Of a stretch of DNA of 64,000 nt, positions 3,647 through 55,005 are shown one piece after another; positions within the stretch are counted from its first letter, which is position 1, and every line of letters begins with the position of its first letter. A program made the position numbers and the translations under genes. The stretch comes from an uncultured bacterium. GTDB taxonomy: Bacteria; Abyssobacteria; SURF-5. The notes beneath the pieces are model-generated. The model had not been told where the DNA came from. It made no database searches and saw only the letters and a program-made list of their open reading frames with translations. Location: NCBI GenBank assembly GCA_964607485.1, contig CAZSKP010000014.1, positions 49,441 through 113,440 on the forward strand, written 5' to 3'.

Positions 3647-4870
3647 CTAAGGCCCAATGTCACCAATTTCCTGTTCCCTTTCTTTGGCCCACTCAATTTG
3701 AGAATCCTTGATTCTGGCAGCGACTGTTTCTGCCGCCAAGCGATGGCCTTCCGGCGACCAATGCGGGTCATTTTTCAGGAAGAGAGAAAAGGGTTCGGGA
3801 TGACCACGGAAGATTGGGGTAAGATCTATGCATGGAACGTCCAGGGCGGCGCATACCTCCGCCAGACGTTTTGAGGGGCGGTCCCAGTCGATATCCTCTG
3901 ACTCCGGATCCAACCCTGCATATCTGATACTGATGTCGAATATTTCCCTATCCGCATCCTCTTTTTTTGGAACGTAGAGCACGATTAAGCGTCCTCCACC
4001 TTCCATTGCCGATTCCTTCATGCGTGAAACCAAGAGACGCACCACGTCCCAAGCAAGGTCCATCTCAGGAGAGGGAGGACCATAGATGTCCACTATCGAA
4101 AAATCCATTGCGTCTTTCTTTGCAGGCCCCACTTGAGAAGCATCATCAGAAGGCTGATGCCTTGCCCTCAAAGCATTCGCCCGCCGTTGTAACTCGCGTT
4201 TGTCCTTCAGAATCCTCAGCCGGTACTCAATGAATCCGAATAGCCAGCTGTTATGACGAAACCACTGGGTTATCGGCGAACTGAGCACTTTCTTGACGGG
4301 TCGATTTCCTATCCGTAAGGTACCGTCCTCTGCAATCACGGCCACGGGGCGCGTGCCCTGTTGGTCATCGAAGTTATCCCTGAGGTCGTTCCAGACAAAG
4401 GCAAGCATGGTCAGGTCGGGCTTATATCGCACGCCTTCCATCTGGAGACGCACTAATTCCTGCACAGTGCTATAACCGCTGACTCCCAGGTTGATGGTCT
4501 GAGTGTCAGGAATCAATTCCTGAAGAATCGTGGAAAATGTATCTTCGTTATCCACTCCGAATCCCCACATGAAACTGTCACCCAGCACAACGATGCGTCG
4601 GGTTCCGAGAGGCTTTGCGAAATCTTTCTCGCTGTCCCGGAGCCCCCGGCTGTTGTTAGCTACATGCACGTCGAATCCTCCCGGAAGAAAGAAGCGCGCA
4701 TTAATATTGGGCAAACCCACCCACCCTGCATCAGGGTCGCTGCGGTGCAACTTCGCCGTCGAGATGACCATTATCCTGGGCTTCACAAGTCGTATGGCCC
4801 CTTCCAATATCAACAGGACAAGAATCGTGCTGATGACAACCAACGAAAGACGTTCCACCCACTGTCTCAT
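3647..4870 (-). CDS. Membrane-anchored SGNH/GDSL hydrolase family protein
   Basis: N-terminal TM helix; VLGDSFMWG, NLGVSGYS, WND, DPHWSPEGH motifs. Confidence 0.88.
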   Translation of the reverse strand: MRQWVERLSLVVISTILVLLILEGAIRLVKPRIMVISTAKLHRSDPDAGWVGLPNINARFFLPGGFDVHVANNSRGLRDSEKDFAKPLGTRRIVVLGDSFMWGFGVDNEDTFSTILQELIPDTQTINLGVSGYSTVQELVRLQMEGVRYKPDLTMLAFVWNDLRDNFDDQQGTRPVAVIAEDGTLRIGNRPVKKVLSSPITQWFRHNSWLFGFIEYRLRILKDKRELQRRANALRARHQPSDDASQVGPAKKDAMDFSIVDIYGPPSPEMDLAWDVVRLLVSRMKESAMEGGGRLIVLYVPKKEDADREIFDISIRYAGLDPESEDIDWDRPSKRLAEVCAALDVPCIDLTPIFRGHPEPFSLFLKNDPHWSPEGHRLAAETVAARIKDSQIEWAKEREQEIGDIGP

Positions 4871-4959
4871 AAGCTACGCTATCGTTCTTGTGTCGGTTAG
4901 TGGAAAGGATGTGCTTTTACCGATGATTATTATTGATATTACCGTCGCCATGAGCCTGC

Positions 4960-6819
4960 CTAATCCAACTCGAAGTCCTCTTTCCAATCGTGTGTTTCCT
5001 CCCACGTCGGCTGGGACGATTTGTCGAAGAGGTAATTCTCCATCACGAGGTAATCCATTTCCGTCCGCATGAAACAACGGTAGGCTTCCTCGGGAGTGCA
5101 CACGATGGGCTCGCCGCGCACATTAAAACTCGTATTGATCAGTACCGGGCAGCCCGTGTGTTTCTTGAAGGTATGAACAAGTTCCCAATAGCGTTCGTTG
5201 GTCTCACGATTCACGGTCTGTATTCGCGCCGAGTAATCGATGTGTGTGACGGCCGGGATGTCGGAGCGGCGGTAATAGAGGCGCTCGAAAAGCGGCAGGT
5301 CGTGGTAACCATTCGGCAATGGGTTGAGGCGGTCGGCCCTTACCGGCGCGACGAGGAGCATGTACGGCGAAGGTCGGTCAAGCTCGAAATAGTCTGCGCA
5401 ATCTTCTTCAAGCACGGAGGGCGCGAATGGCCGGAAACCCTCACGATACTTGATCTTCAGGTTGAGTCGCTTTTGCATGTCGGGGTCTCGCGGGTCCCCG
5501 AGGATGCTACGATTGCCCAATGCCCTTGGGCCGTATTCCATGCGCCCCTGGAACCATCCGACAACGTTCCCTGCCGCCAAGAGCCGGGCTACTTCCTCAC
5601 AGAGGAGTCGAAAATCCGGGTAATGGCGGTACGGCGCTTCGAACCTTCGGGCAACGCGCACGATGTCGGCTGAGCCATACTCGGGCCCCAGCAAAGAGCC
5701 TTGCATTTCGTCATGTCCGGGTGTGGGACAGCGCTTCTCATCTTTCCATATGTGCCAGGCCGCCAGCGCAGCCCCCAATGCGCCGCCGGCGTCGCCCGCA
5801 GCCGGCTGAACCCACAGATTCTTGAAAAGCCCGCGGCGCAGCAGCTTCCCATTGGCGACACAGTTGAGCGTCACTCCTCCCGCGAGCGCGATATTATCCG
5901 AGCCAGTCAGTTCAAGTGCCGTGGATGCGAGTCGCAGAAAGATTTCCTCCGTCACGTGCTGTATTGCCAACGCGAGGTCCATGTAGGACTGAGTGAGTTG
6001 GCCATTCAAGGGTCGTGGCGGAATGCCAAACAGTGCCTCCCATCGGTCGTCGTGACACATGGTGAGACCGGTGGCATAGTTGAAGTACTCCATGTTCAAC
6101 AGTATTGACCCGTCTTCGCGCAAGTCAACCAATTCGTCCAGAATCTGTTGCCGATACCGTTTGGTCCGGTCACTCTCCGGGTTGCCATAGGGGGCGAGGC
6201 CCATGAGCTTATACTCGCCGCTGTTGACTCTGAAACCGCAGTAGTAAGTAAATGCAGAGTAAAGGAGCCCGAGAGAATGAGGAAAATGCAATTCCTTGAG
6301 AATCCGAATCTCTTTTCCGCTGCCCTTCCCGATAGTCGTCGTGGCCCACTCTCCTACCCCGTCGATTGTCAAGATTGCCGCTTCCTCAAACGGTGAAGGG
6401 AAAAAAGCACTGGCTGCGTGGGAAAGGTGGTGCTCGGGGAATAATAGCGTTGGGTTGCCGTCACCCAGCTTGGCCAACTCCTTCTTCAAGAGCTGGCGCA
6501 TGAGCAGTTTCTCCTTGATCCAAACGGGCATGGCCGAAAGGAAGCTCTGCAGCCCCTTTGGAGAAAAGGCGTGATAGGTTTCAAGCAGTCGTTCGAATTT
6601 GATGTAGGGCTTATCGTAGAACGCGACGGCGGTCAATTCGGCAGGAGTGACATTCCCCTCCGCGAGCACGTAAGCTGCCGCTCGAGTGGGAAATGAGGCA
6701 TCGTACTTCTTCCTGCTGAAGCGCTCCTCCTGGGCTGCGGCTATGATGTTGCCGTCAATGATCAATGCGGCAGCGCTGTCGTGATAGTAGGCCGATATGC
6801 CCAAAATTGCTGATCGCAT
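4960..6819 (-). CDS. O-carbamoyltransferase (NodU/CmcH/SxtI family)
   Basis: ILGISAYYHDSAA, EHHLSHAASAF, DGVGE, EYKLMGLAPYG, GPRALGNRSIL, NTSFNVRGEP; start moved to MRSAILG. Confidence 0.95.
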   Translation of the reverse strand: MRSAILGISAYYHDSAAALIIDGNIIAAAQEERFSRKKYDASFPTRAAAYVLAEGNVTPAELTAVAFYDKPYIKFERLLETYHAFSPKGLQSFLSAMPVWIKEKLLMRQLLKKELAKLGDGNPTLLFPEHHLSHAASAFFPSPFEEAAILTIDGVGEWATTTIGKGSGKEIRILKELHFPHSLGLLYSAFTYYCGFRVNSGEYKLMGLAPYGNPESDRTKRYRQQILDELVDLREDGSILLNMEYFNYATGLTMCHDDRWEALFGIPPRPLNGQLTQSYMDLALAIQHVTEEIFLRLASTALELTGSDNIALAGGVTLNCVANGKLLRRGLFKNLWVQPAAGDAGGALGAALAAWHIWKDEKRCPTPGHDEMQGSLLGPEYGSADIVRVARRFEAPYRHYPDFRLLCEEVARLLAAGNVVGWFQGRMEYGPRALGNRSILGDPRDPDMQKRLNLKIKYREGFRPFAPSVLEEDCADYFELDRPSPYMLLVAPVRADRLNPLPNGYHDLPLFERLYYRRSDIPAVTHIDYSARIQTVNRETNERYWELVHTFKKHTGCPVLINTSFNVRGEPIVCTPEEAYRCFMRTEMDYLVMENYLFDKSSQPTWEETHDWKEDFELD

Positions 6820-6960
6820 CAGCCACTTAGTTCTTCCCGCACGCTTCGAGCCGTGATTGCTTCCGGGCTGTTCCACATTGTTGCCGATCTTGAGGTACAA
6901 AAAGACAGGGGGATTTTCCTGGGGCAAGTACCACTGGTTCTCTATAAGCGGAAGGCGGCA

Positions 6961-7110
6961 TCAGAATATTGTGTAAATAAAGGGGGCAATCGCCGAGCCA
7001 CTGGTGAGGAGAATCAAGGCGCCGAACAGCAACAGACTCAGAATGATCGGGAGCAACCAGAACTTCTTTCTGACTCTCAGATATCCCCACAAATCGCTCA
7101 GGAGCTCCAT
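6961..7110 (-). CDS. SxtK-like (DUF5989) 49-aa membrane protein
   Basis: Below the ORF-track cutoff. Translates as MELLSDLWGYLRVRKKFWLLPIILSLLLFGALILLTSGSAIAPFIYTIF, with the family-typical RKK.WL.P and APFIYT.F. Confidence 0.9.
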   Translation of the reverse strand: MELLSDLWGYLRVRKKFWLLPIILSLLLFGALILLTSGSAIAPFIYTIF

Positions 7111-7132
7111 AATCTTTTCCCACTTGGAGAAA

Positions 7133-7528
7133 CTAATAAGGTCGTTCGATATCTTCGGGTCCGTATCTATGGTCGCGCGTGGTAAAGACAGAGGTCTTTC
7201 CCTTTTTCCACTGATTCTTCCGCATAAGGTCGGAACCGCCCATCCGCCGCACCGCCCCCAGCGGAGTTACCACTCCGTAAAAGAGCACTGTCAGGACCAC
7301 TCTTGAGACTATCGTACCCATCAGATGGGCAATACCAAACCAGACTTTCGCCGGATAGAAGAAAAGGTTTGGCCACACCATATCAGCTACCAGGAGCAGC
7401 ATCGCCAGAAGCAAGAACCTTGGATGCTCTCCGAAGTAAGCCACGAAAAGGCAAATCAGGACTAATGCCATGCCTGTGTCTTTAGACTGGTCCCGACTTG
7501 TGATTTCGCTCGTGTTCCCTTTTCTCAT
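7133..7528 (-). CDS. SxtJ family membrane protein
   Basis: KDTGMALVL, W.G....MG...SRV.L...FY.VVTP.G...R pattern; adjacent to sxtK-like and carbamoyltransferase genes. Confidence 0.85.
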   Translation of the reverse strand: MRKGNTSEITSRDQSKDTGMALVLICLFVAYFGEHPRFLLLAMLLLVADMVWPNLFFYPAKVWFGIAHLMGTIVSRVVLTVLFYGVVTPLGAVRRMGGSDLMRKNQWKKGKTSVFTTRDHRYGPEDIERPY

Positions 7529-7570
7529 GAAAAGAAAAGTTTCCCCCCTTAGCCGAGGATTTGCGCGTAT

Positions 7571-7600
7571 ATTATATAGAGAGCTTCTGAAGCCTGTCAA
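7571..7600 (-). promoter_or_regulatory. Sigma-70 promoter for the sxtJ-like operon
   Basis: TTGACA-N18-TATAAT on the minus strand. Confidence 0.6.
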
Positions 7601-7859
7601 CTAACTGAGGGGTGGTCATAATGACACTTCTCCGAGGAGATGTGGACTTGTGTAAATCGTATGTATCAAAAAGATGCAGTTGTTGTATGGAAGGCGCAAG
7701 AAATGGGGGGGGGAAAGGTCTTCTTCTGGAAAGGTTAGTATTCTTCACTTGGGCATAGTGCCGCTTTTGGCAAAGCGAAAATAGACACCCAGTCCCGCAT
7801 ACGCACGCATCAAAATGGTAATGACACAGATTCTCATCGCTTCTTGACAATATGTTGAA

Positions 7860-10800
7860 TCAGCTCGATTCATCCTGCGTCCTCGGGCTTGCATTCGAGC
7901 CGGGCGACAGCTCCTCTTTCCACTGCAGATACGTGCTGTAATACTGCAGGATTTCCGATTCACATCCAGAGTCAACGGACGTTCCCTCAGGCTCGATGAT
8001 CTCAATCGCTCCGGCGAATACCTCTCCACTGGAGCCGTTGATGCTGATGGCGTCCGTCTCCCCGAACGCAAGCGAATCGGCCTGCAAAATCCTCGCGTGC
8101 TCGTCGATGATCAGCCCCTGACACCCGGTGATGCACGGCTTGCCCATGCGACGAGAGTTGATTGCCGCGTGGGAGGTCATCCCGCCCTCTCGCGTGAGCA
8201 CGCCCTTCGAGGATGCAATCCCGCCGATGTCCCTTGGAGTCGTGCGGTTCGCTACCAGGATAATGTCCTCGCCTGCCTGGGTTCGGATGATGGCGTCCTC
8301 ACTGTTGAACGCGAGGTGGCCGGTGGCCACTCCCGGCGATGCGGGATTTCCCTTCGCAAGCAAATGTCTCGATGCGCTCGGGTCGAACATGGGGAGAAAA
8401 AGCTGTCTGAGGCCGGTCTCGTCGAGCCTCCCGACGGCTGTCTGCTGGTCAATGATACCTTCGTTGGCAAGCTCGACTGCAATTCTCAAAGCCGCCAAAT
8501 CCGTCCGCTTCGCCGGCCGCGTCTGGAGCAGATAGAGCGCATTCCCCTCGACCGTGAACTCGATGTCTTGCACGTCGCGCAAGTGCGCCTCGAGCTTGCG
8601 TGCCACCGCCTCGAGCTCGCGAAACGTTTCCGGAAAACGATGTTCCAGCGAGAAAGAGGGGTCTGTGCCATCGCGTGCCGAGCTCAGCGGCAGCGGTTCG
8701 CCGTGGCCGCACACCAGCACCTCGCCTTGTGAACGCGGCAGATACTCTCCGAAAATTTGGCGGTCTCCGGTTACGGGATTGCGCGAGAAGACTACTCCCG
8801 AGCACGATTCCGGGCAGAGGTTGCCAAACACCATCTGCTGGATGGTGGCCGCCGTGCAGAACTGGTGGGGGATGTTGAAAATCTGGCGGTAAGTGATGGC
8901 GCTGTCGCTCTGCCATGACAAGAATATCGCTCTGAGCGCCCCCATGAGCTGTTCTCGCGGGTCCTGCGGGAGGGGAGCGCCGATGGCGTCCGCAACTCTC
9001 TTCAACAGGGTCTTCACCATCCGTTTCATCTCTTCCGCGGACGCGCACGCCGGATTACTCTCGGCAAGAGCCGGCTCGCGCGTGTCGGAATAGCCCATGA
9101 CGGAGGAGGCGTACTTTGATATCAGCCTGAAATAGCACTCGTACGCAAACAGAGAGTCACCGGTGATATGGGCCAAACCTTCGACTGTTTCGTCGTTAAG
9201 CCCAATATTCAAGACGGTGTCCAACATCCCCGGCATTGAAACGCACGCGCCCGCCCGCACCGCCAGCAGAAGCGGCTTCTCCGGAGAGCCGAGCCTGCAC
9301 CCGGTGATTTCTTCCAGCTCCTCGATGCTCTCGGACAGGAGCTTCTGGGTGCGGTTACACAAGACATGGCCGTCGGAGAAGAACATGTTGCACACTTTCG
9401 ATGTGAGCGTAAACCCGGGAGGCACATTCAGCCCCAGCCGGGCCATTTCGGCAAGGAATGCGCCTTTCTCCCCCAGTATCGGGTAATGCGCCACCTGCCC
9501 CTCGGCTGCTCCCGGCCGGAAGAAATAGGCGAGTTTGGCCGGGTCAACCTTTTTAGAGATTGCGTCCAGGTCGCGCCTGATTCGGGCCACCTTAATGGCG
9601 GAGATTTCCCTGATGGGCGGATGACGCACGCGCTTCATGAACTCGGCGATGCGCGCGCGAGAGAAATTGAGCAGCCTCAGCGTAAGCTCGGAAAGATGTT
9701 GCAGCGTCGTCTCGCGGAATAGGCCGTCCACGAACGCGCTCGCCGCCTCGTCGGCGTGCGGAATCTGGCGTGACGAAAGAATTTCGCGCGTGGTATCGTA
9801 ATAGGTCTGAACGATCTTGTCCGTCGCCGCTCCTATCTCGGCGTTGATACGCTCGACGATCGAATAGACGGTATAGAAGTTGAGGTCGCTCGATTCCTTG
9901 AGCGCGAGGAGCTGCCTGCCGTAGTCTCTGATTTTCTTCGTGCACTGTCCCTTGGCGCGCACGCTCAAAATCATCGAATGCATCACATCGATGGCCAGCG
10001 GAAGCGCCTCGACCGTGATGTCGGCCAGAATCACATTGCTCGCCTCGCCGTAGATAATGTAGCCGAGACGTTCGAGTGTCAGGTCGAGCCAGATGGCCTC
10101 CAGCGTTACCTCGATTGTCCGCGTTTGAACCAGCGGATTCTTGATTGTGTCGCGCAGCGATATCCGCACCTCGCCGAGCATCAAGGCGGCGTTGAGGATG
10201 TCCCGCGCTCGCAGATACCCGATGAATCGCTCGAGCGATTCGAACAGATGGGGGAAGAAGAGAGAAACCGCCTCGCGCCGCCATGAATCGATGAGGGCAT
10301 GTATCTCCTCCGGCTCCTTTTTGTCTGCGCTTGTCAGCCCGGCCCTCAAGTTCTCGAAAAGTCGTTTGACATTGGGATTCTCTGCGTCGAGAATCGATTC
10401 TTCGAGCAGATTGACGAGAATCTCCACATTGGTTTCAATCAACGATCTGTTCCGCTTCTCGATACTGCCGAGGAGATACCGAAGCTGGCTGTTGACCCGG
10501 GGCGATACAATCTGCGAAATGTTGCTGAGGAGTTGGTATATGTCTTCTACCCGGTCTTCGATGTTCCCCGGATGGGGCTCAAAAACATTTGCGAGTTCCC
10601 TCTCCAGCTCTTTCAACAAGCCGAGTATCGGCTGGAATTTGTCGGGGCGGTACTGAAACACTTTCTGATACTTGTTTATTGCGGTCAGAGGCTCGGAGTC
10701 GGCGTTCTCCACATAGGCGAGGAGCGCTCGCACGAGGTCGAGGTTGCGCGGAGAGAGCTTGCTGTGGATTTCTCCCCTGATATCCTCGGTGATGGGGGAT

Positions 10801-11204
10801 GGGAACGCGTATTCTATCTCTTCGGCGAGCCCGCGCAACGCCCGAATCTCGTCTTGCGACGCGCCGAAGAAGGGCAGGCTCTTGACCAGTTGCCGCACGA
10901 GCAGATACATGTCGTCCGAGGACAGGTCTATGCACATCAGTTCTTCGAGCTTCTCGCGCATCTGCTTCGAGAGCGCAATGCTATCGGCCTTCTCGGCGAA
11001 GCCGCTGCCCCGGTAGCCGGCCAGGCTGCCCGTCTCAACGCGCAGATTCACGTTGAGCGCCTTGATGAGGTCGGTGCTGCCGAGCGGGTCGGAGACAATT
11101 CGCTCGATGCAGGCGAACACCTTCTCCCAGCTATTGATGGGCTCAAACTCTGATTCTTTGACCTCAACACTCATTCTGCCGTCAGATGCTCCCTCAGCGT
11201 TCAT
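7860..11204 (-). CDS. Atypical dikinase: glucan-water-dikinase-like N-terminal region + PPDK ATP-grasp + phospho-His swivel domain, no PEP/pyruvate barrel
   Basis: LGEKGAFLAEM..LGLNVPPGF, VRAGACVSMPGMLDTVLNIG, QQMVFGN, QDIEFTVE..LYLLQTR, GGMTSHAA. The protein stops just after the PPDK linker helix. Alternative start at 11174. Confidence 0.85.
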   Translation of the reverse strand: MNAEGASDGRMSVEVKESEFEPINSWEKVFACIERIVSDPLGSTDLIKALNVNLRVETGSLAGYRGSGFAEKADSIALSKQMREKLEELMCIDLSSDDMYLLVRQLVKSLPFFGASQDEIRALRGLAEEIEYAFPSPITEDIRGEIHSKLSPRNLDLVRALLAYVENADSEPLTAINKYQKVFQYRPDKFQPILGLLKELERELANVFEPHPGNIEDRVEDIYQLLSNISQIVSPRVNSQLRYLLGSIEKRNRSLIETNVEILVNLLEESILDAENPNVKRLFENLRAGLTSADKKEPEEIHALIDSWRREAVSLFFPHLFESLERFIGYLRARDILNAALMLGEVRISLRDTIKNPLVQTRTIEVTLEAIWLDLTLERLGYIIYGEASNVILADITVEALPLAIDVMHSMILSVRAKGQCTKKIRDYGRQLLALKESSDLNFYTVYSIVERINAEIGAATDKIVQTYYDTTREILSSRQIPHADEAASAFVDGLFRETTLQHLSELTLRLLNFSRARIAEFMKRVRHPPIREISAIKVARIRRDLDAISKKVDPAKLAYFFRPGAAEGQVAHYPILGEKGAFLAEMARLGLNVPPGFTLTSKVCNMFFSDGHVLCNRTQKLLSESIEELEEITGCRLGSPEKPLLLAVRAGACVSMPGMLDTVLNIGLNDETVEGLAHITGDSLFAYECYFRLISKYASSVMGYSDTREPALAESNPACASAEEMKRMVKTLLKRVADAIGAPLPQDPREQLMGALRAIFLSWQSDSAITYRQIFNIPHQFCTAATIQQMVFGNLCPESCSGVVFSRNPVTGDRQIFGEYLPRSQGEVLVCGHGEPLPLSSARDGTDPSFSLEHRFPETFRELEAVARKLEAHLRDVQDIEFTVEGNALYLLQTRPAKRTDLAALRIAVELANEGIIDQQTAVGRLDETGLRQLFLPMFDPSASRHLLAKGNPASPGVATGHLAFNSEDAIIRTQAGEDIILVANRTTPRDIGGIASSKGVLTREGGMTSHAAINSRRMGKPCITGCQGLIIDEHARILQADSLAFGETDAISINGSSGEVFAGAIEIIEPEGTSVDSGCESEILQYYSTYLQWKEELSPGSNASPRTQDESS

Positions 11205-14200
11205 CCAGCCCGTCGAGCGCCGACAGCGTCCGCGTCGCCAGATACTTCAAGGCCGCGCCGCCGCCCGTACACAAGGTAAACTTCTCCTTCGCCGCCTCGA
11301 TTCCGCCCATGCGACGATTCACGGCGGCAACTCCGTCGCCGCCGACCACGAGCTTTGCCTTGGCCGGGCACTGCGCGATGGCGTCCACAATCCAGTTTGT
11401 TCCCTCAGCGAATTGCTCCACTTCGTAGAGCCCGACGGTTCCGTTGTAGATGATCGTGCCTGCTTCAGCGAGAATGGCTTGAATCTCGCCCGCCGTCCTT
11501 GTGGCGGCGCCGTCGCTCGCGGCCGCAATATCAAACAGGTATGAACCGAAAGGAATGCTTTCCGCATCAAGAACGCGCGAAGACACTCGCAGGAGCGGCC
11601 TGAACTTGTCGGGCAGCTCGAAGGCAACGTGCACGTCCTTGGGAATCACGACCTTGACGTCGAATTCAGCCGCCAGCTCTATCAGCCTGTGGGCGGCCGC
11701 CACCTCGCGCTCGACCTCGAGCACGTCGGCACCCGAGAGCGAGTTGCCGGCCGACAGGCCGCTCGCAACGAGAAAGGCCGGGGATGCCGTCACAAATGTC
11801 TGAATGGCGCCATGGCGTATCATTGCTTCGACCGCGGGAATCTTTTCGCTTATCTTTACGCCGCTGACGAAAGCGACGACGGGCCGGCTGGCCTCGCGCA
11901 GTATTCCATCGAGAGTTTCAAGCTCGCTCCCCGTCAGCAAACCCAACACTTTATGCCCGTGGACGAGGTTCATCAGCGGCAGAAACGAGGCGTGAAGCCC
12001 GCGATGGGAGGCGCCGAACGCGCTGTTGACATAGTTAACCCGTCGCTGCGAGTCCGGGTCGAGATGGCCGAAGAGCGTGTCAAAAATGGCCTTCGCGAAA
12101 TGCCGATTGCCCGACTCCTCTCCTTCGTGGAAACGCAGATTCTCGAGATAGAGAACCTGACCGGGCCCGAGGCCGCGCGCGAGTGACGCTGTCTGGGCAT
12201 CGACGACGCCGGGCGCCATGAAGAAATCCCTCTCGGGAACAAGGACATTCCGGTCCCGCAGTATTTCGGCGAACCGCTGGCCTGCAATCCTCAAACTGAA
12301 CAGGTCAATGACTTGACCGTCCTCCGTCTGGAGGAACTGGAAATCTCTCTTGCGCCCATTGTGCGACATCACAATGACTCTCGCGTTTCGCTTGATGAGG
12401 TGCGCAATGTCGTCCGCGCTTGCAAATATCCGATGGTCATCGATGATTGAAGGTCTTATGGTGTTGGTGGCCGGGTCATAAAGCGGCTCCACGACGTTAT
12501 GGTCAACCCGTACCATCCAGTACATGCCGTCGAACGCTTCGTCAGGCAGGTCGAGAAGCGAGGATTTCTTTGAATAGGGACTCTCGGATTTCGGGGGCAC
12601 GTCGGGCACATAGGGAAATTGTGTGAAATCCTTCTGGTACGCCTTTTCCGCAGGCAGCATCACTTCTTCGAGGAATTCGACGTACATTTTCGACGGTCGC
12701 CACTCGTTTTCGTACCAGCCGATCAACTGGATGACGGTCATTGGCTCGCCGCTGGGAGCCACGAAATGGACGACCTCGACGTTCCTCTTACACAGCGTTA
12801 CGCCCGCCTCCGCAAGCTCTCGCAGCAGTCTGATTTGCGTTGAGCGGTCGATTTCCTTGTCCCTGAGGAACTGAAATCTCTGATGGTCGCCCTCGCGGCA
12901 TGCATCCTCCAGCACTTTGGCGGCAGCCTCGATATCATCAATCGTGTAATGTCCTCGGAGCACATAGGTGGGAGCCATGATGGAAACAGTTTCTATCGGG
13001 AACCGTATCGAGTACACCGGCGTGTGTGAAGTTCCCGCGGCGTCCACGAGAGCGGTGCTGGCGCTTGCGCCCGACGTCGTCTCGAAGATGTTTCCTGTCG
13101 CGTCGGTGCCGCGCCGTATGTCTTTCTTGTACTCTATCGGGTCGATTATGTCGGGGCCGACGTGCTCGCCGGTGAGCGCGTGATAGGTCGGCCCGATTCC
13201 CTCGAGCACCATTGCGCCGGCAACCTCGTAGAATCCGTTCCAGTCAAACCGGCCCTCCTCGGCGCCGCGGTGCATTGCCACCTCGACGAGACGGTTCAGA
13301 TTGGCCAGACATCCAGTCGTGCACGAGGCCGGGGAAAGAAAGTAATGCTTCGCGGGATCATACTTGTGGTCATTGATGTGCCTTATGAAGGTGGCATCGC
13401 GCCACTCGTCTTCCTTGCTCGAGCCGGGCGCGGTGATCATTGCCCGCAGGGCGCCGGCGCGCCTGTGGCGGTTGACGCCGTCCAAGTTGTTGAAGCGGCC
13501 AGTCGCATCTATGGCGACGTGTACAGGCATCCCGGCCAGTATGAAGCATTTCCACGGATAGTTCGCCGGGTCTCTGAATACCGGGTGGCTGAACACGAGC
13601 GATCGCTTCCCGTCCAGCTCAATCCAATCACGACCGTATTGAACGGTGCCCGGATAGCGACCCTGAACATAATCCTTCTCGTTCATCAGCTCGGCGAGGC
13701 GCTTGGCATCGGGGCCGCCCACCGCGATGACGCGCAGCGTGTCGCTCTTCGAGGCTATGCGGAACGTGCAGCTTCCCATGCGGCCGCCCGGAGCGTTGAT
13801 GGTGATGTTGTACACTCCCGGCAGTGAGGGATACAGTATCGAGTTCGGCCTGCTGATGGTCTGCCATCGCTGTCGCTGTCCATCATACTGGTCGATCGAC
13901 AGAAAGGTCACCCGGTCGAAGAGCTCCGTCTTCTCGTTGTAATCCAGGTGATGAACCCGGATGGTCGCCCGGAGCTTGTCGCCGTATTCGTATACATCAT
14001 GTATCAGTATTTCCCAGTCGTATTCGCGGCTGAGCCGGAGCGCGTATTTGCGAAGCGCATCGTAGTATCGCCCCATCACATGATGCACATTCTCAAGCGA
14101 CGCGGCGGTGAGCAGCGAAGTCGCGTACAGCTTGTGCCGGTTCTCGTGGAGCGCGACCATCGCGACAGCCTCTCCCGTCTCGTCACGCAAAACCTCCTGC

Positions 14201-16482
14201 AGGATGATAGGCTGCGACTCGAGGAAGAGCAGCCTCACAGCGTCCTCGGTCAATTCGCGGTCGGATACGCGGATCGTGCCCGTGCCCCCCATGGAGCCTG
14301 CGTACATGCGGGCTCGACGTTTCGTGGCGTGCGCCTGCGTTTTCTGTTCATACTTCCGGGCAAGACGCGGGATGTGACGCTTTGAAAAGTCGGTCTGTTG
14401 AGCGATGTCAAGCTTTGCCCAGTGACGGCTTGCCGCGGGCATACCCGGCGTGAATGTGTCAGCCCTCTCTCCGAGCTCTCGCTTAAGAGAATGGCCGGCG
14501 ATGAGGCGCAGCGCTTCCTCGACATCCGCCACAGCCTCGTCGAGGAAAAAGGCGATGCTCACCTGGGTGCCGGCATCGTTCTGGCTGACATAGACCTGGT
14601 TAGGGTCGAACATAATTCTGGAACTTCCGAAATTGAGATTCGAGGTCAACTGCACCCACCATTCGGGCAGGCTGAGCACTTCAAGTTCCTGCGCTTTCGC
14701 CTTGAAGAGCGAGATTATCCTCTCTCGCGAGAGCCTCGAATCGACCACCGCGTTCAAGCGGAGAAGCTTGCCGCGCGGAATATTCGTCTTGAATTCGTTA
14801 GTGGCGAGCAGCTTTGTATCATCACCGGCCAGCCCCAGCATCCTCGCCACACCGGCGAAGCGCTTCGGATTCTTCTTATGGATGACCTGGTACACTCCGG
14901 CTACTCTGTATGTTGGCTGGACAACTGCCGGTTCGTCATGCTTCTCGACAATATCGGCTCCCAGCACAAAGATCTTCCCCATCTCGGAAAGGGCGGATAT
15001 CCCGAGCGCATACGCAACTTCTTCGGCAGGCATGATGCCGAACGCGCTTCTTCCTTCAGGGTATTTCTCATTTAAGAGGGAGTGGACGGTCGCATCGTCA
15101 CTTGTCTGTGTCCGAGCGACAACAAGTTGTGCCCCTTCTTTACGAATACGCTCCAGTAACTGCGGCTCAATCTTACGAGCGTGATCTTCGCTGATGAGGA
15201 TATAGTCGATGCCCAAAGCCTTCCAGGGAAGGGACTCAAGAACGGCCGGCGCTTCGGTCAGGCTCCCGTGATACACACTGATGGCAGATTTCTGTTTGCC
15301 GATAGAAAGGAAGCCTTTCTCATCACCCTCGACCTCTTCATAGATTCCAAGCTGCGAGTTGTACTTCAGCCACTGCATAATGTCTTTGGCTTTCTGCCCG
15401 ACAAAGACCACTGCCTCCAGCTCATTGACATACGCGCTGCCGATCCTGCGCAGAGCGGCGATAATGTTCTGGTTGTATCCGACAACCGCAATCCGGCGCG
15501 GTGCGTTTCCGGGTGAGAGATGCGCCAAGATACGGGAACGAATGGCCGCAAGATGTCCGGCCTCGAGCTCGAGGAAGGGCGATTCCGAAAGTCTGAACAC
15601 ATCGTAGAATTCATTCATCCCCGGAACAAACTTCGCTAACTCATCCAGCGAGCGCTTCCTCTTTTCGGGATCCCTCTGAAAACGATCCAACTGAGCGAGA
15701 AGCCTGTCGATTTCGCGAACTTCCGTTACCGGCGCTATCCTCATCCCTCGTTGCTCAATCAGTGCACGAACCGCGTCAAGCGAGGGATGGCCCACCTCCT
15801 CCATAACGTATGCTTCCTCGGAAAGTTCGGGGGTTTGCTTCTCGACTCTTCTCGCCATCGCGGCGAGTGCACCCGACCGAGCCTGCATGTTAAACATGAA
15901 CGAAGCTGCTTCCGACAGAATTCCTTCAGGCACGTGTCGATGAACACTGGGACGATTGAAGTCGTCACAGAACTCGGCGAAAAGATGGTAAACGCCGTCT
16001 TCGCCGTCAAATATGTTCGTCCCGTATGCCGCCTTGAACTCCTCTGCAAGAGCTTCCTCCCCGATTCCTTCCCTCGCCATGAACTCCCGGAGCCCGGAGT
16101 GGAGAAGGGGAAAGAGTTGGAGGCGTCGCGCCATCCACTCGACACCTTCGTGAACGAGCGTCCGGTTCAATACGCGGCGGCGACGATGCTGAAAGCTTTC
16201 GTTCGAGTTTTGAGCGGTTATCTCTGAGCGACAGATCCATTCGAGGAAGGAGTACGTGTCGAGGACATCGGAATAGATGATTCCCTGATTGTCGGCGAGT
16301 GTCGCTATAGGGAATTGTTCGAGGGCTGGTGCGAGATCTATGTCTTGAAGCGCCGGGTCGGCGCGCGCAGCTGTCTCCACAAGTCGATGAATGTAAGTTG
16401 AAGAGGGCCGGTGCAAAATTATCGGTATCTGAGAGAAGCCTTCGGGACGGGCGAGAAGCTCGGGTGGGCTTGGCAAAAGCAT
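11194..16482 (-). CDS. Giant fusion: unknown domain + degenerate GAPDH + linker + divergent GAPDH + phosphoglycerate kinase
   Basis: GAPDH motifs IDATGRF, ASCTTGCLA, YHALT, TTSGA, WYENEW. PGK motifs RVDHNV, SHNGR, LENLRF, AFGASHR, TGGGAAL. Start set at ATG 16482 with GAGGAG RBS. Confidence 0.88.
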   Translation of the reverse strand: MLLPSPPELLARPEGFSQIPIILHRPSSTYIHRLVETAARADPALQDIDLAPALEQFPIATLADNQGIIYSDVLDTYSFLEWICRSEITAQNSNESFQHRRRRVLNRTLVHEGVEWMARRLQLFPLLHSGLREFMAREGIGEEALAEEFKAAYGTNIFDGEDGVYHLFAEFCDDFNRPSVHRHVPEGILSEAASFMFNMQARSGALAAMARRVEKQTPELSEEAYVMEEVGHPSLDAVRALIEQRGMRIAPVTEVREIDRLLAQLDRFQRDPEKRKRSLDELAKFVPGMNEFYDVFRLSESPFLELEAGHLAAIRSRILAHLSPGNAPRRIAVVGYNQNIIAALRRIGSAYVNELEAVVFVGQKAKDIMQWLKYNSQLGIYEEVEGDEKGFLSIGKQKSAISVYHGSLTEAPAVLESLPWKALGIDYILISEDHARKIEPQLLERIRKEGAQLVVARTQTSDDATVHSLLNEKYPEGRSAFGIMPAEEVAYALGISALSEMGKIFVLGADIVEKHDEPAVVQPTYRVAGVYQVIHKKNPKRFAGVARMLGLAGDDTKLLATNEFKTNIPRGKLLRLNAVVDSRLSRERIISLFKAKAQELEVLSLPEWWVQLTSNLNFGSSRIMFDPNQVYVSQNDAGTQVSIAFFLDEAVADVEEALRLIAGHSLKRELGERADTFTPGMPAASRHWAKLDIAQQTDFSKRHIPRLARKYEQKTQAHATKRRARMYAGSMGGTGTIRVSDRELTEDAVRLLFLESQPIILQEVLRDETGEAVAMVALHENRHKLYATSLLTAASLENVHHVMGRYYDALRKYALRLSREYDWEILIHDVYEYGDKLRATIRVHHLDYNEKTELFDRVTFLSIDQYDGQRQRWQTISRPNSILYPSLPGVYNITINAPGGRMGSCTFRIASKSDTLRVIAVGGPDAKRLAELMNEKDYVQGRYPGTVQYGRDWIELDGKRSLVFSHPVFRDPANYPWKCFILAGMPVHVAIDATGRFNNLDGVNRHRRAGALRAMITAPGSSKEDEWRDATFIRHINDHKYDPAKHYFLSPASCTTGCLANLNRLVEVAMHRGAEEGRFDWNGFYEVAGAMVLEGIGPTYHALTGEHVGPDIIDPIEYKKDIRRGTDATGNIFETTSGASASTALVDAAGTSHTPVYSIRFPIETVSIMAPTYVLRGHYTIDDIEAAAKVLEDACREGDHQRFQFLRDKEIDRSTQIRLLRELAEAGVTLCKRNVEVVHFVAPSGEPMTVIQLIGWYENEWRPSKMYVEFLEEVMLPAEKAYQKDFTQFPYVPDVPPKSESPYSKKSSLLDLPDEAFDGMYWMVRVDHNVVEPLYDPATNTIRPSIIDDHRIFASADDIAHLIKRNARVIVMSHNGRKRDFQFLQTEDGQVIDLFSLRIAGQRFAEILRDRNVLVPERDFFMAPGVVDAQTASLARGLGPGQVLYLENLRFHEGEESGNRHFAKAIFDTLFGHLDPDSQRRVNYVNSAFGASHRGLHASFLPLMNLVHGHKVLGLLTGSELETLDGILREASRPVVAFVSGVKISEKIPAVEAMIRHGAIQTFVTASPAFLVASGLSAGNSLSGADVLEVEREVAAAHRLIELAAEFDVKVVIPKDVHVAFELPDKFRPLLRVSSRVLDAESIPFGSYLFDIAAASDGAATRTAGEIQAILAEAGTIIYNGTVGLYEVEQFAEGTNWIVDAIAQCPAKAKLVVGGDGVAAVNRRMGGIEAAKEKFTLCTGGGAALKYLATRTLSALDGLDER

Positions 16483-16589
16483 AATCGCGCTCCTCAGATG
16501 TAACACGCCTATACTTTTGGCAGCACAATACTTATGCAATCCGCGTCACAACCTGAAAGGTGGGAGCGAACAGAATTCAGCCTACGGTA

Positions 16590-16618
16590 ATTTTACCCTC
16601 ATTTCCGAGAATAGTCAA
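16590..16618 (-). promoter_or_regulatory. Sigma-70 promoter for the GAPDH-PGK/dikinase operon
   Basis: TTGACT-N17-TAAAAT on the minus strand, about 110 nt before the start. Confidence 0.6.
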
Positions 16619-16768: not shown

Positions 16769-18148
16769 TTAGTAGAGCCCGTCGTTTCTCATGTCAACCA
16801 ACGATGACTTCAGTGCGCCAATTATTGCATCGACATCGTCGGGCGTGTGCGCCGTTGACAGGAAGACGACGTGCATGTCAGGCATGAAAACGCCATGCCG
16901 CCGCATGTAGTAGGGGAGCAACTTCTCTGCTATCTCGTTGGCGTTCTGCTCCATCTGGCGCAAGTCTTGCGGGTCGTCTTCGAGGAATCTTGCGATCACC
17001 GCACTCTCCAATCCCATCAAGCAGAACGGCATGTTGTTCTCTCGGGCGTATTCGTTGACCTCTTTGGTAAGTCGTTCTCCCTGCTCTTTCAAATAGGGAT
17101 ATACGGCATCCTGATTCTCTTTGAGGTAACTCAGCAACGCGCTGCCCGCCGCGCATGAGACCATGTTTCCGGAATTGGTCCCGACGGCGTGGATCTTCGT
17201 GTTGAGGTCCTCCAGCGGGTTGCCCGTCGTAACGGCCACTTCCATGATGTCGCGCCTGCCGACGACAGCGCCAAGCGGCAGCCCTCCGCCGACAATCTTG
17301 CCGAATGTCGCCAAATCGGGCTTTATGTCCCATCGATCCTGCGCGCCCCCGTAACACGCCCGGAATCCCGTCACCACTTCATCAAAGATCAGTATCACGT
17401 CCTGTTCCTTCGTGACTTCTCGCAGCTTTTTCAGGAAGTCGATGTTCAGCTTCGGCCAGCCGGGCCCCATGGGCTCCACGATAACGCAGGCAAGGTCTTT
17501 CGCATTCTCGCGTATGATATCGAAGGCGGCCTCATGGTCGCGCGGAAGCACAATCGTCGTTTCCAGGATATGACGGCATATGCCCGGCGTATCGAGGACA
17601 CCCTCCGGTCTCTCTATCGGACCGCGGCGTTCGGTTCCTATGTTGGAGCTTACGCTGACATCCGGGTGGGTGCCATGATATCCGGCTTCAAATTTTGCGA
17701 TTTTCTCTTTCCCCGAAAACGCGCGGGCTATCTTGATTGCCTGCATCGTCGACTCAGTGCCGGAATTTGTAAACAGAGACCTCTCGGCGCATGCAACCGC
17801 GTCAATTATCAACTTTCCAAGCCTATGCTCCAACTCATGCCCGACAACCACGCTGGTGCCCCGCGTAACCGCTTCCTGCACCGCTCTTACGACGACCTCC
17901 GGCGAATGGCCCAGGATGTGCGGCCCGTAGCTCATCGCGATGTCGATAAACTCGTTTCCGTCAAGGTCGATGAATCGACAGCCCTTCGCCTGCTTGATGA
18001 TCATCGGGATGAAAGGAGAATTGCGCGGTCCCTCGGTGAAGAACGAGATTGTCCCGTCCTCTTGCCTCTGTGTGTGGGCCTCCATGCATTTCTTCTGCTT
18101 GACCATCAACTCCTGGATGATGGGAAGCTCCAGTACTTCTTTCATCAT
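16769..18148 (-). CDS. Class III aminotransferase (glutamate-1-semialdehyde aminomutase-like)
   Basis: DLDGNEFID, NSGTES, YHG, LIFDEVVTGFR, TFGKIVGGGLP. Confidence 0.9.
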   Translation of the reverse strand: MMKEVLELPIIQELMVKQKKCMEAHTQRQEDGTISFFTEGPRNSPFIPMIIKQAKGCRFIDLDGNEFIDIAMSYGPHILGHSPEVVVRAVQEAVTRGTSVVVGHELEHRLGKLIIDAVACAERSLFTNSGTESTMQAIKIARAFSGKEKIAKFEAGYHGTHPDVSVSSNIGTERRGPIERPEGVLDTPGICRHILETTIVLPRDHEAAFDIIRENAKDLACVIVEPMGPGWPKLNIDFLKKLREVTKEQDVILIFDEVVTGFRACYGGAQDRWDIKPDLATFGKIVGGGLPLGAVVGRRDIMEVAVTTGNPLEDLNTKIHAVGTNSGNMVSCAAGSALLSYLKENQDAVYPYLKEQGERLTKEVNEYARENNMPFCLMGLESAVIARFLEDDPQDLRQMEQNANEIAEKLLPYYMRRHGVFMPDMHVVFLSTAHTPDDVDAIIGALKSSLVDMRNDGLY

Positions 18149-18162
18149 GGCAGTATCCTCCC

Positions 18163-18768
18163 CTAATCCTTTGTTTTCTCGTCCAGGTAGAGCCGGACGA
18201 AGTTCTTCGTCAGCCTATGCATTCTTTCAAGGGATATATTCTTGTCATCAATGTGTTTCTGCAAGGATACCCCGTCCTGAATTGCCACGAGCATACTTGC
18301 GAGGTCGTGTGCCTCCTTGGATGACAGCCCCGCCGTCTTGCCGGTTTCCGTAAGCAGTCGAAGTACTGCGGCTCGATATCGACGGAACAATCTGGTCATG
18401 CTTTTTTGGACCCTTGGATTGCGTTGGGCTTCGACGATACAACTATAGTAGAAGCCGGGAGGTTCAGTGTTATTCATTTCAGGGCTGAACAAAAATTCGA
18501 GACCTTTTTCGAAACGCTTTTCCGGGTCCTCGTATTCACCCATCTGGGCGGAGTAAGAGTGCATGAGGTCATCTACGAGTTTTTCGACCAATTCCTCAAT
18601 CATATCGTCTCTGTCTTTGAAATAATGATAGAGAATGCTGGGTTGAACCCCCGCCTCCTTTGCTATCGTCTTGATGGGGCTATTCTGCAGGCCGTGTTTT
18701 GAGATGCACCGACGCAGCGCGTCCAAAATCTGGGCTCTTCGCTCATCCGCCAGGCTCTTCCTGCCCAT
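18163..18768 (-). CDS. TetR/AcrR family regulator
   Basis: N-terminal HTH IAKEAGVQPSILYHYFKDRD. Confidence 0.92.
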   Translation of the reverse strand: MGRKSLADERRAQILDALRRCISKHGLQNSPIKTIAKEAGVQPSILYHYFKDRDDMIEELVEKLVDDLMHSYSAQMGEYEDPEKRFEKGLEFLFSPEMNNTEPPGFYYSCIVEAQRNPRVQKSMTRLFRRYRAAVLRLLTETGKTAGLSSKEAHDLASMLVAIQDGVSLQKHIDDKNISLERMHRLTKNFVRLYLDEKTKD

Positions 18769-34149: not shown

Positions 34150-34944
34150 CTACGCGCGGATCTTCTCACTTGCCACGCACGCCGCCCCCAGTGCGCCAAT
34201 TATCTGAGGGTCGATGCCGTCGGGGAAGCTCTTCAGGTCGAATTTCAGTTTCTTTTGCAGAGCGTCTAATACCCCTCGATTCTTTGCGACGCCGCCCGTG
34301 ACCGCGATGGCTTCCTTCAACCCGACCCTGCCAACCATAGTGCTCACACGATTTGCGAGCGAGATGTGCAGGCCTTTCACGATGCTCGGGAGCGGAACTT
34401 CTTCGTTTATGAGGTTTATCACTTCCGACTCGGCGAAGACGCTGCACATGCTGCTGATGGTCGTCGGGTCTCCCTCCTGGAAATGGAGCTCGGACAGCTC
34501 TTCCAGCTCGATGCCCATGCTGCGCGCCATCATTTCGAGGAAACGTCCCGTGCCCGCGGCGCACTTGTCGTTCATGGCGAAATCGAGCAGGTTGCCCTCG
34601 TCGTCGAGCCGTATCGCCTTGGTGTCCTGGCCTCCGATATCGATAATCGTGCGGACATCGTTCAGGAGCATGTAGGCGCCTTTCCCGTGGCAGGAGATTT
34701 CCGAGACGTTGACATGCGCGAAATCCACTTTTGCACGGCCGTATCCTGTGCCCACGATGTAGGCGACGTCCGCTTCGCCGCATCCGGCCCTTTTGAGCGC
34801 TTCGTGGAAAACCTCCCTGGCGGTCTTCGTGGGATTGGTGGTGCTCGGGCCGGTCACATAGCTCAGGATGTGGCCGTCGTTCAAGATCAGGGCCTTGCTC
34901 GCAGTGGAGCCGATGTCGACGCCCGCCGTTATTGTTGTTGACAT
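34150..34944 (-). CDS. 2-hydroxyacyl-CoA dehydratase activator (HgdC/BcrA-D type ASKHA ATPase)
   Basis: GVDIGST, TGYGR, EISCH, DIGGQD, MNDKCAAGTGRF, CSVFAESE, TGGVAKN. Confidence 0.95.
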   Translation of the reverse strand: MSTTITAGVDIGSTASKALILNDGHILSYVTGPSTTNPTKTAREVFHEALKRAGCGEADVAYIVGTGYGRAKVDFAHVNVSEISCHGKGAYMLLNDVRTIIDIGGQDTKAIRLDDEGNLLDFAMNDKCAAGTGRFLEMMARSMGIELEELSELHFQEGDPTTISSMCSVFAESEVINLINEEVPLPSIVKGLHISLANRVSTMVGRVGLKEAIAVTGGVAKNRGVLDALQKKLKFDLKSFPDGIDPQIIGALGAACVASEKIRA

Positions 34945-34970
34945 TTTCCCCTCTCCTCAAACAGCCGCAC

Positions 34971-36293: not shown

Positions 36294-36311
36294 GACCCGA
36301 TACCTCCCTTT

Positions 36312-50614: not shown

Positions 50615-50910
50615 TGGTCGCGCGAGAAGCGGATGTGGTCAAACGCGGGCGGCTTCTCGCGCTCGCGTTCGTTCTTGCTCACTCTGAGTTCCATGGAGAC
50701 ATCGTTGAAATCAAAGTCCTCGGGCAGCGTCTCTGTCTCCTCCACCTGCTCCTTGGGAATCGAGATGGCCATTGGGTCCAAAATGTACGTCTCCTCGTCC
50801 TCACAGTAGTTCATCACTCTGCCGATTATGACCATTTTTGCCTGGCTGCCGCGCCCGGAGTCGCCCCCCCCGGAGAGGCGCATCTTCACCAAATCGCCCT
50901 TCGATATCAT
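50611..50910 (-). CDS. Small acidic hypothetical protein
   Basis: GAGGAG RBS, upstream consensus promoter, host-like codon usage. Confidence 0.7.
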   Translation of the reverse strand: MISKGDLVKMRLSGGGDSGRGSQAKMVIIGRVMNYCEDEETYILDPMAISIPKEQVEETETLPEDFDFNDVSMELRVSKNEREREKPPAFDHIRFSRDH

Positions 50911-50951
50911 GTCTCACTCCTCTTAATTTCCGTTGCTCACAATGCAAGCAG

Positions 50952-50981
50952 ATTATAGGACGCGCGAGACGGTTGTGTCAA
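50952..50981 (-). promoter_or_regulatory. Sigma-70 promoter
   Basis: TTGACA-N18-TATAAT on the minus strand. Confidence 0.7.
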
Positions 50982-51085
50982 TCGCGCAACAAAACACGAG
51001 ATTCCCCGAGTATGTTGGCCGACACCTACCCACTCCAAAAACTCTTCAAACCGAAGAGGTTCTTGCCATAAGATGGGACATGTGC

Positions 51086-54952: not shown

Positions 54953-54976
54953 TTAGAAGCGTGCCTTTTTGTTTGC

Positions 54977-55005
54977 ATTATACAACGGTCAAAACAATTT
55001 TTCAA
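54977..55005 (-). promoter_or_regulatory. Sigma-70 promoter of the methyltransferase cassette
   Basis: TTGAAA-N17-TATAAT on the minus strand. Confidence 0.6.

Follow-up and report, generated by a model that had tools for sequence, protein, structure and literature searches.

The pairing of an ATP-grasp domain with a swivelling phosphohistidine domain is a reusable engine for phosphotransfer, and to date a new activity has come with each acceptor domain found joined to it: the pyruvate barrel, the rifampin-binding domain, the phenol-binding subunit and the helical domain of GWD. In pyruvate phosphate dikinase (PPDK) and phosphoenolpyruvate (PEP) synthase (PEPS), the ATP-grasp domain is followed by the swivel histidine domain and the pyruvate domain, whereas RPH places the rifampin (RIF)-binding domain between its ATP-grasp domain (residues 1-314) and its swivel histidine domain (residues 767-865) (PMC4844700). 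GWD1 consists of CBM45 modules, a helical domain, the histidine domain and, at the end, the ATP-grasp domain, in this order. Its acceptor site is a 20-helix domain without an equivalent in the PDB, on which the histidine domain rests for the transfer (PMC13553574). HpeHI and PpsAB carry the ATP-grasp domain on one protein and the substrate and histidine part on another (PMC12167813). Finally, Rv1127c, also termed VadK, is a PPDK without the barrel that occurs in mycobacteria and other actinomycetes. Its His422 is autophosphorylated with ATP/Mg, and the protein co-precipitates with enzymes that act in the methylcitrate cycle (PMC13400623). These papers are cited here and below from excerpts of their texts. 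In this work, we describe a gene on a 64,000-nucleotide stretch of DNA from an uncultured bacterium (Abyssobacteria, SURF-5; contig CAZSKP010000014.1, positions 49,441 to 113,440), referred to as the window throughout. The protein it encodes places a helical domain of no known family before a PPDK-type ATP-grasp domain and a swivel histidine domain, and it ends without a pyruvate barrel.

A preliminary description of this locus, made from the sequence alone, had quoted the domain orders of PPDK/PEPS, RPH and GWD, which agree with the excerpts of PMC4844700 and PMC13553574. It had also presented the protein as a new arrangement within the PPDK family. The order of N-terminal domain, ATP-grasp domain and histidine domain stands as new: it is conserved in the family described below and absent from the literature searched. 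The lack of the barrel, on the other hand, had already been published for VadK/Rv1127c. Loss of the barrel in the PPDK lineage is thus known, and what is new is the N-terminal domain, the order in which the domains stand and the partner gene. We found no description of an N-extended barrel-less PPDK in the literature, a search that left most subscription journals outside its coverage and is not proof of absence.

A PPDK-type front half without the pyruvate barrel

The open reading frame (ORF) occupies positions 7860-11204 of the window on the reverse strand, in a single frame of 1114 amino acids (aa), and the residue numbers of this protein count from the ATG at 11204. Translation probably starts at the ATG at 11174 and gives 1104 aa (gene at 7860-11174, reverse strand), because the homologues start at residue 16 in the alignment, a 100% identical database copy (P0001) has 1104 aa, and a GAGGGAG resembling a ribosome-binding site lies between the TGA of the upstream gene (11196-11194) and this ATG. 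The preliminary description had given the coordinates 7860-9540, which cover the PPDK half; the gene really extends to 11174 or 11204 and includes a 546-aa N-terminal domain (N-domain). All parts of the gene lie on the reverse strand. The N-domain, all-alpha and of no known family (residues 11-556), is encoded by 9537-11174, the PPDK-type, nucleotide-binding ATP-grasp domain with the first linker (residues 557-944) by 8373-9536, and the swivel phosphohistidine domain (residues 945-1066) by 8007-8372. Within the latter, the codon of the catalytic His1012 is at 8169-8171 and that of Thr1010 at 8175-8177. The C-terminal tail with the stop codon (7860-8006) contains an aromatic stretch with the invariant Y1088 and W1095, and no barrel follows. 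The protein ends 16 residues beyond the linker helix YSTYLQWKEE, close to the 15 or so first estimated, and a 260-nt spacer richer in AT follows the stop codon.

The core of the protein was assigned to the PPDK type by several searches. Pfam detected PPDK_N (PF01326, E = 5.5e-36) and PEP-utilizers (PF00391, E = 4.8e-18, residues 979-1060) and no other match. With TIGR01828, the NCBIfam model of PPDK, residues 557-1076 scored 537.7 bits, under the cut-off of 843.45, and the alignment took up positions 2-514 of the 865 in the profile. PEPS models scored about 100 bits. In a phmmer search against the PDB, the best match was C. symbiosum PPDK (9pzl/1kbl, E about 1e-117), with about 42% identity over 505 aa between residues 568-1072 and residues 10-515 of the chain (9-514 for 1kbl). 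In this alignment, ILGEKG, AVRAGA, DVQDIEFTVE, LLQTRPAKRT and GGMTSHAA stand opposite the motifs of the C. symbiosum enzyme, which we take to bear K22, R92, D321/E323, Q335/R337 and T453/H455. GGMTSHAAI is encoded by 8160-8186 (reverse strand), and T1010, S1011 and H1012 are invariant in all 19 aligned sequences. Pfam, TIGR01828, the 1kbl alignment and the translation confirmed the PPDK-type ATP-grasp motifs and the GGMTSHAA with its His and Thr that had been noticed at first sight, and the identity to C. symbiosum PPDK together with the retained motifs bears out the view of a true PPDK front half. The protein has the ATP-grasp domain as well as the swivel GGxTSHAA histidine of PPDK and lacks the PF02896 barrel and a TIGR01828 score above the cut-off. 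It is not an RPH, either by its score with the RPH model NF041857 (46.6 bits against a cut-off of 999) or by its domain order.

The barrel had been described as cleanly absent, and our searches agree. PEP-utilizers_C (PF02896) was detected neither in the protein nor elsewhere in the Pfam scan, which took in 43 ORFs of the window. When six full-length PPDKs were compared with the 64-kb window by tblastn, only 7908-9539 was matched (by query residues 3-552). Matches of barrel residues all had E values of at least 0.4, and the nearest one (E = 1.1) falls inside a carbamoyltransferase gene. None lay within 6928-7860, downstream of the gene, a range that includes the 7530-7860 in which the preliminary description had proposed to look for remnants.

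The same architecture recurs in a family of homologues. A word-indexed protein search returned 29 proteins, including the copy from the window itself. Among them, 18 homologues of 1019-1118 aa show 63-70% identity across 91-99% of the query, and all 18 of these near-full-length proteins contain PF01326 and PF00391 and lack PF02896; close homologues continuing into a barrel, which would have spoken for a recent truncation, were thus not seen. Three further homologues (666-866 aa) are cut at the C-terminal side, two of them marked 'partial' at the source. All 19 aligned sequences finish 3-27 residues past the invariant Trp of the Y-x-N-T-Y-L-E-W-K stretch, and by BLAST each full-length member extends 22-45 residues past the core. 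The source labels of the homologues include Abyssubacteria, Hydrogenedentota, Poribacteria and Lindowbacteria. We refer to these close homologues as family A. An exhaustive search of 1.84 billion cluster representatives at 50% identity added family B, five distant homologues of 906-1027 aa with the same build (P0030, P0032, P0035, P0040 and P0065). Because all 18 homologues share the build and the end point, the sequences indicate that the loss of the barrel is family-wide and no recent truncation.

The phylogenetic position of the core was analyzed in a quick tree (LG+G4) computed from 83 core sequences over 530 columns, without an outgroup, as no PEPS sequence was included. The rows comprised 10 sequences of family A, four of family B, 36 of 91 canonical PPDKs (55 were thinned out), 28 short forms, four N-extended canonical proteins and one N-extended short form, with fragments and partial-coverage rows left out. 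Family A forms a clade among PPDK-type sequences with a support of 100 in the Shimodaira-Hasegawa-like approximate likelihood ratio test and a stem branch of 0.61. Resolution along the backbone is poor, with 36 of the 80 inner branches open, and the unrooted tree gives no parent PPDK lineage for the family. When families A and B were constrained to a single clade, the likelihood lay 109.5 log units above that of the free quick search, with p = 0.956 in the approximately unbiased test. Because of this constrained-tree result and the N-domain common to both families, the N-extended architecture likely arose once. Of the proposed independent recombination of a true PPDK front half, the PPDK-type core is borne out; as to independence, there is an N-extended sister group, and the tests do not reject that both share one origin.

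Front halves without a barrel are not confined to these families. Among the best 150 representatives, about 28 proteins of 480-585 aa consist of the front half only (for example, P0049, P0058, P0067, P0088 and P0097). They are scattered over the tree, requiring 19 changes. A part of them probably represent fragments or split genes, and others are true barrel-less lineages. Frequent changes at the histidine helix and the preceding Thr, given below, suggest many independent barrel-less lineages beyond VadK, even if some may be fragments. We also observed other unusual combinations around the same core. In P0175, adenylate kinase is joined to a full PPDK; P0080 carries RCC1 repeats with a front half that has Asp in place of the catalytic His; P0028 consists of HEAT repeats, a front half, a metallophosphatase and a GNAT domain; and P0085 (2145 aa) has a 1226-aa N-extension on a full PPDK.

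The N-terminal domain and the histidine helix

Residues 11-556 had no match in Pfam or NCBIfam, apart from chance-level Pfam matches at E ≤ 10. The AlphaFold2 model of the N-domain, built from 25 sequences, is confident, with a mean predicted local distance difference test score of 84.2 and a predicted template modelling score of 0.80, and it folds into a compact, all-alpha single unit of 23 helices. In Foldseek searches, neither the PDB nor BFVD contained a match at E ≤ 0.001. The best PDB match had an E value of 0.017 and a template modelling score normalized by the query (TMq) of 0.13, the best TMq values overall were 0.13-0.18, and there was no RPH chain among the listed PDB matches. Comparison of three segments of the N-domain detected no internal repeats (best probability 1.3%), the protein atlas returned only a cluster of its own kind (scores 0.79-0.84), and tblastn against plasmids gave no match. 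The label of a substrate domain, given to this region in the preliminary description, remains a proposal, as the domain is without a detectable relative of known function.

Within the family, the N-domain is retained together with the core. It is homologous between families A and B (phmmer E values of 1e-47 to 1e-14, in blocks of about residues 20-210 and 320-535). A search with the N-domain only, among candidates of 300-956 aa, found just C-terminally cut fragments of the same family, five of the seven still containing PPDK_N. Over 17 full-length members, the mean pairwise identity was 0.696 in the N-domain, 0.679 in the ATP-grasp domain, 0.736 in the histidine domain and 0.497 in the C-terminal tail, and the respective shares of invariant columns were 33%, 31%, 30% and 9%. 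These values point to purifying selection along the whole length of the protein, with an N-domain that equals the catalytic core in conservation. In families A and B together, 72 positions of the N-domain are kept in at least 22 of 24 sequences, 13 of them R, K or H and nine D or E. The invariant residues of the N-domain include R55, R104, R124, H147, R347, D374, E378, R497, H503 and R532. Because of these conserved positions with their charged residues, the N-domain looks like a functional site and no loose spacer, and it is plausible, by analogy with GWD, that it binds the acceptor.

A further deviation from PPDK lies in the histidine domain. In PPDK, it is the helix following the catalytic His that reaches into the partner active sites. 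It reads SHAAINSRR in the protein from the window and SHAAVVARG in canonical PPDK. Counting six residues from the His, HAAINS is found in all 10 rows of family A, whereas 27 of 36 canonical PPDKs have HAAVVA; family B has HAAECA, HAAITC, HAANNA and one broken sequence. At fifteen positions, a residue conserved to at least 90% in family A stands against a different one that canonical PPDKs keep to at least 70%. Six of these positions are in the histidine domain, three of them directly after the catalytic His. The retuning of the helix to INS fits an altered acceptor site and speaks against a barrel that joins in trans. The Thr located two positions ahead of the catalytic His is present in all 10 rows of family A and replaced by Asn in P0065. 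The short forms are often altered both at the helix (HAAVVA in 11 of 28) and at this Thr (present in 16 of 28). According to the excerpt of PMC12167813, Thr at this position is general to PEPS, PPDK and PtsI. The preliminary description had suggested that, by way of this Thr, the protein may still be under the control of the PPDK regulatory protein (PDRP, PF03618). In the Pfam scan, which covered 43 ORFs of the window, PF03618 had no match.

The GAPDH-PGK partner gene and the surrounding window

Directly upstream, on the same strand, lies a gene for a GAPDH-PGK fusion protein, to which we refer as the partner and which the preliminary description had not mentioned. Its stop codon precedes the ATG of the dikinase-type gene at 11174 by 19 nt. 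The partner ORF spans 11194-16539, and the start is probably the ATG at 16482, behind a GAGGAG, giving a gene at 11194-16482 and 1762 aa, the length of the database copy. An N-terminal part of about 890 aa belongs to no family known to Pfam or NCBIfam or found with a PDB profile. Pfam and NCBIfam place a GAPDH domain at residues 912-1283 of the ORF (12691-13806) and a PGK domain at residues 1336-1768 (11236-12534). Aligned with 8hrs, the GAPDH domain keeps SCTT, H-x-x-T, RR, T-S-G-A and the R of 'RVP'; aligned with 7zy7, the PGK domain keeps RxDxN, DDxRI, SHxGR, ENxRF, AFGxxHR, GxK, NGxxGxxE, GGD and TGGGA. We take these to be the catalytic and phosphate-binding motifs. The GAPDH domain is divergent yet motif-complete, and the N-terminal region is very highly conserved and rich in His, with HENRHK and IRVHHLDYNE as examples; neither Pfam, a PDB profile nor the protein atlas returned a match for this region. 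Residues 336-720 of the partner were considered as a degenerate second GAPDH and rejected, with hhalign probabilities of 0.2-0.3% against the GAPDH domain of the partner itself and one canonical GAPDH. Likewise, a kinship of the dikinase N-domain with parts of the partner was rejected (hhalign probability ≤ 0.6%).

Nine homologues of the partner, at 65-89% identity, share its build; eight of them have 1715-1760 aa and one has 1035 aa. For three of 10 partner hits, the length given for the longest contig equals that given for a hit of the dikinase-type family, namely 113440 (that of the window itself), 88333 and 157244 nt, so that contigs are shared between the two families. P0185 pairs in this way with P0015, labelled Candidatus Abyssobacteria SURF_5 (88333 nt), and P0186 with P0004 (157244 nt). 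A scan of genome contigs with the pattern SMPGM[ML]DT gave 80 loci that match only residues 531-1114 and are swamped by canonical PPDKs; none had the N-domain or the partner N-terminal region by tblastn. A promoter-like site, TTGACT-17-TAAAAT, with 10 of 12 consensus positions, lies upstream of the partner at 16590-16618, and a perfect sigma-70-like site, TTGACA-18-TATAAT, lies downstream of the dikinase-type gene at 7571-7600, both on the reverse strand and both identified by consensus match only. Because these sites flank the pair, the two genes look like one bicistronic unit starting at the 16618-16590 site, and the 7600-7571 site would open a separate unit with SxtJ-like, carbamoyltransferase and SGNH genes. 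A defence system and an upstream riboswitch were also considered for the pair and rejected, as PADLOC gave no match and Rfam none in the window.

Channelling of 1,3-bisphosphoglycerate (1,3-BPG) between GAPDH and PGK has long been debated, and the GAPDH-PGK fusion would offer a natural test case for it. We found no covalent GAPDH-PGK fusion in the literature, including the excerpts of PMC7729029, PMC12525153 and PMC6121073, most subscription journals being outside the coverage of this search.

Further genes of the window were noted. The reverse-strand group at 3647-7600 encodes an SxtJ-like membrane protein, a NodU/CmcH-type carbamoyltransferase and an SGNH/AlgX-like hydrolase and looks, from these assignments, like a unit for O-carbamoylation or acylation of a polysaccharide or small molecule. 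On the other side of the pair, directly upstream, a class-III aminotransferase and a TetR regulator are encoded at 16769-18768 (reverse strand), separated from the ATG at 16482 by a 286-nt spacer in which the promoter-like site of the pair is found. A BcrAD/BadFG-type activator ATPase lies beside two HGD-D subunits, similar to 2-hydroxyacyl-CoA dehydratase/benzoyl-CoA reductase, at 34150-37469 (reverse strand), and a CdhC-like fragment gene is found at 38216-38989; the presence of these genes points to an anaerobic lifestyle. The stretch 50001-56000 has a low GC content (0.455-0.514, compared with about 0.58 around it) and may be an acquired island. It contains a 1064-aa fusion of an MmeI/Eco57I-type N6 DNA methylase and a restriction part (51758-54952) and an ORF of no family (51086-51757). 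Three consecutive ORFs of 410, 403 and 606 aa at 56588-60978 (reverse strand) had no Pfam match at E ≤ 1e-4.

Possible functions and comparison with known dikinases

The protein is very probably a functional, selected enzyme of the swivel-histidine dikinase type, which would autophosphorylate from ATP and could not make PEP by itself. Beyond that, we favour, with a probability of roughly 0.4, a dedicated PPDK derivative that has left pyruvate and PEP and would deliver phosphate to a site on its N-domain, the acceptor being linked to the GAPDH-PGK node. We prefer this reading because the N-domain is conserved, the histidine helix is retuned, GWD provides a precedent and the two genes are coupled. 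In the proposed cycle, the PPDK-type ATP-grasp domain would bind ATP and phosphorylate His1012, as PPDK and VadK suggest by analogy, with release of AMP and pyrophosphate (PPi) or phosphate (Pi). The swivel domain would then move the phosphoryl group to a second site. By analogy with the helical central domain of GWD, this site may lie on the 546-aa helical N-domain, where it would serve for acceptor binding or docking and replace the missing TIM barrel. The acceptor may come from the triose-phosphate/3-phosphoglycerate (3-PG) node, such as 3-PG/1,3-BPG or glycerate, its identity being taken from the partner gene only. The reverse direction, from AMP and PPi to ATP, would also be conceivable.

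Several observations weigh against this reading. The weak Foldseek neighbours of the N-domain are helical-repeat or adaptor proteins (Tom70, designed repeats), neighbours that would suit a protein-docking scaffold no less than an enzyme site. A sequence profile of the domain found nothing under E = 0.1 among PDB sequences and hence no likeness to solved sequences, and the domain shows no ligand-binding motif that would tie it to a substrate. Moreover, the fused PGK already serves 3-PG and 1,3-BPG, and a second phosphotransfer enzyme is not obviously needed.

A regulatory role, which we consider possible though somewhat doubtful, comes next. The protein would then be a VadK-like histidine kinase that acts on or binds the GAPDH-PGK megaprotein and tunes flux, with the N-domain as a docking scaffold. 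VadK itself sets the precedent, being barrel-less, autophosphorylating and co-precipitated with methylcitrate-cycle enzymes (PMC13400623, as excerpted). The score of 427.2 bits with NF004531, near the cut-off of 456, the adaptor and repeat proteins among the nearest, non-significant folds, and the translational closeness to the partner agree with such a role. However, an N-domain conserved like the core, with many invariant charged residues, would be unusual for a pure scaffold. The domain also has neither sequence repeats nor similarity to the partner, and VadK manages without it.

Alternatively, the protein could be a small-molecule dikinase for a xenobiotic, phenolic, glycan or antibiotic, comparable to RPH, HpeHI and GWD, and its position beside GAPDH-PGK incidental. 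The superfamily of PEP-utilizing enzymes and dikinases has repeatedly gained new acceptor domains, and the front halves of P0080 (RCC1) and P0028 (HEAT, metallophosphatase, GNAT) are N-extended as well. The very tight gene spacing and the contigs shared in three of 10 partner-family hits, one of them that of the window itself, argue against this alternative, as does the recovery by the N-domain-only search of just cut fragments of the same family, five of seven with PPDK_N. We regard it as unlikely.

Still less probable is a split PPDK, in which a barrel encoded elsewhere would join in trans, pyruvate and PEP would be interconverted, and the N-domain would serve oligomerization in place of the barrel-mediated dimer. 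Two-component dikinases such as HpeHI and PpsAB do exist (excerpt of PMC12167813), and with the canonical HAAVVA in 11 of 28 short proteins, some of these may be split or fragmentary PPDKs. Against it stand the lack of a barrel ORF or remnant within the window, the alteration of the barrel-entering histidine helix at three consecutive, highly conserved positions in all 10 family members, and the branch of 0.61 between the family and canonical PPDKs. A recent truncation, an assembly artefact or a decaying pseudo-enzyme, for which the missing barrel alone could be quoted, is hardly credible in view of 18 homologues with the same ends, invariant catalytic motifs and purifying selection over the full length.

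The preferred reading, phosphate transfer to an N-domain site with an acceptor from the GAPDH-PGK node, can be taken one step further, to a rather speculative form that we hold to be improbable. The protein and the megaprotein would form one machine, in which the swivel histidine exchanges phosphate with 1,3-BPG/3-PG at the N-domain, a dikinase step at the triose-phosphate node. Substrate-level phosphorylation would then be coupled to the conversion of AMP and PPi to ATP and Pi, a PPi-economizing lower glycolysis, or, in the opposite direction, 3-PG would be activated for gluconeogenesis driven by the conversion of ATP to AMP. Such a machine would represent a new activity and a new fold within a natural covalent GAPDH-PGK channel. 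More generally, if the two proteins cooperate, this would point to a reaction or point of control not yet described in lower glycolysis or gluconeogenesis of uncultured bacteria. If the N-domain only docks, the idea drawn from VadK, that a remnant of PPDK serves as a regulator of metabolism, would reach beyond actinobacteria.

Among the described systems, PPDK (EC 2.7.9.1; 1KBL, 1DIK, 9PZL) shares its ATP-grasp domain and its swivel histidine with the protein from the window, and the same first half-reaction is expected. PPDK differs by its TIM barrel and the VVA helix, whereas our protein lacks the barrel, has the 546-aa N-domain added and carries the INS helix. VadK and the proteins of NF004531 are likewise front halves without a barrel. 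VadK, however, has two domains (about 490 aa) and the methylcitrate cycle as its context, in contrast to 1104-1114 aa with an N-domain in the context of GAPDH-PGK. The NF004531 type consists of the ATP-grasp and histidine domains only (about 490-534 aa), and its cut-off was passed by eight of 10 short forms and by none of five N-extended proteins, the one from the window included. P0002 scored 424.2 bits and family B 379.6-408.6 bits, and our protein falls outside the type by its extra N-domain.

GWD1/PWD resembles the protein as a swivel-histidine dikinase with a large, all-helical acceptor domain N-terminal to the histidine domain (PMC13553574, as excerpted). The arrangement differs, GWD having CBM45s first and the ATP-grasp domain last, whereas our protein has no CBM and proceeds from the helical domain to the ATP-grasp and histidine domains. 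No sequence similarity to GWD was detected in the searches of PDB sequences, although 9HA9 and 9QVI were perhaps not among the structures searched. RPH, HpeHI and PpsAB follow the same ping-pong logic, with a new acceptor domain added to an ATP-grasp domain and a swivel histidine. In these enzymes the ATP-grasp domain is PEPS-like, whereas in the protein described here it is PPDK-like.

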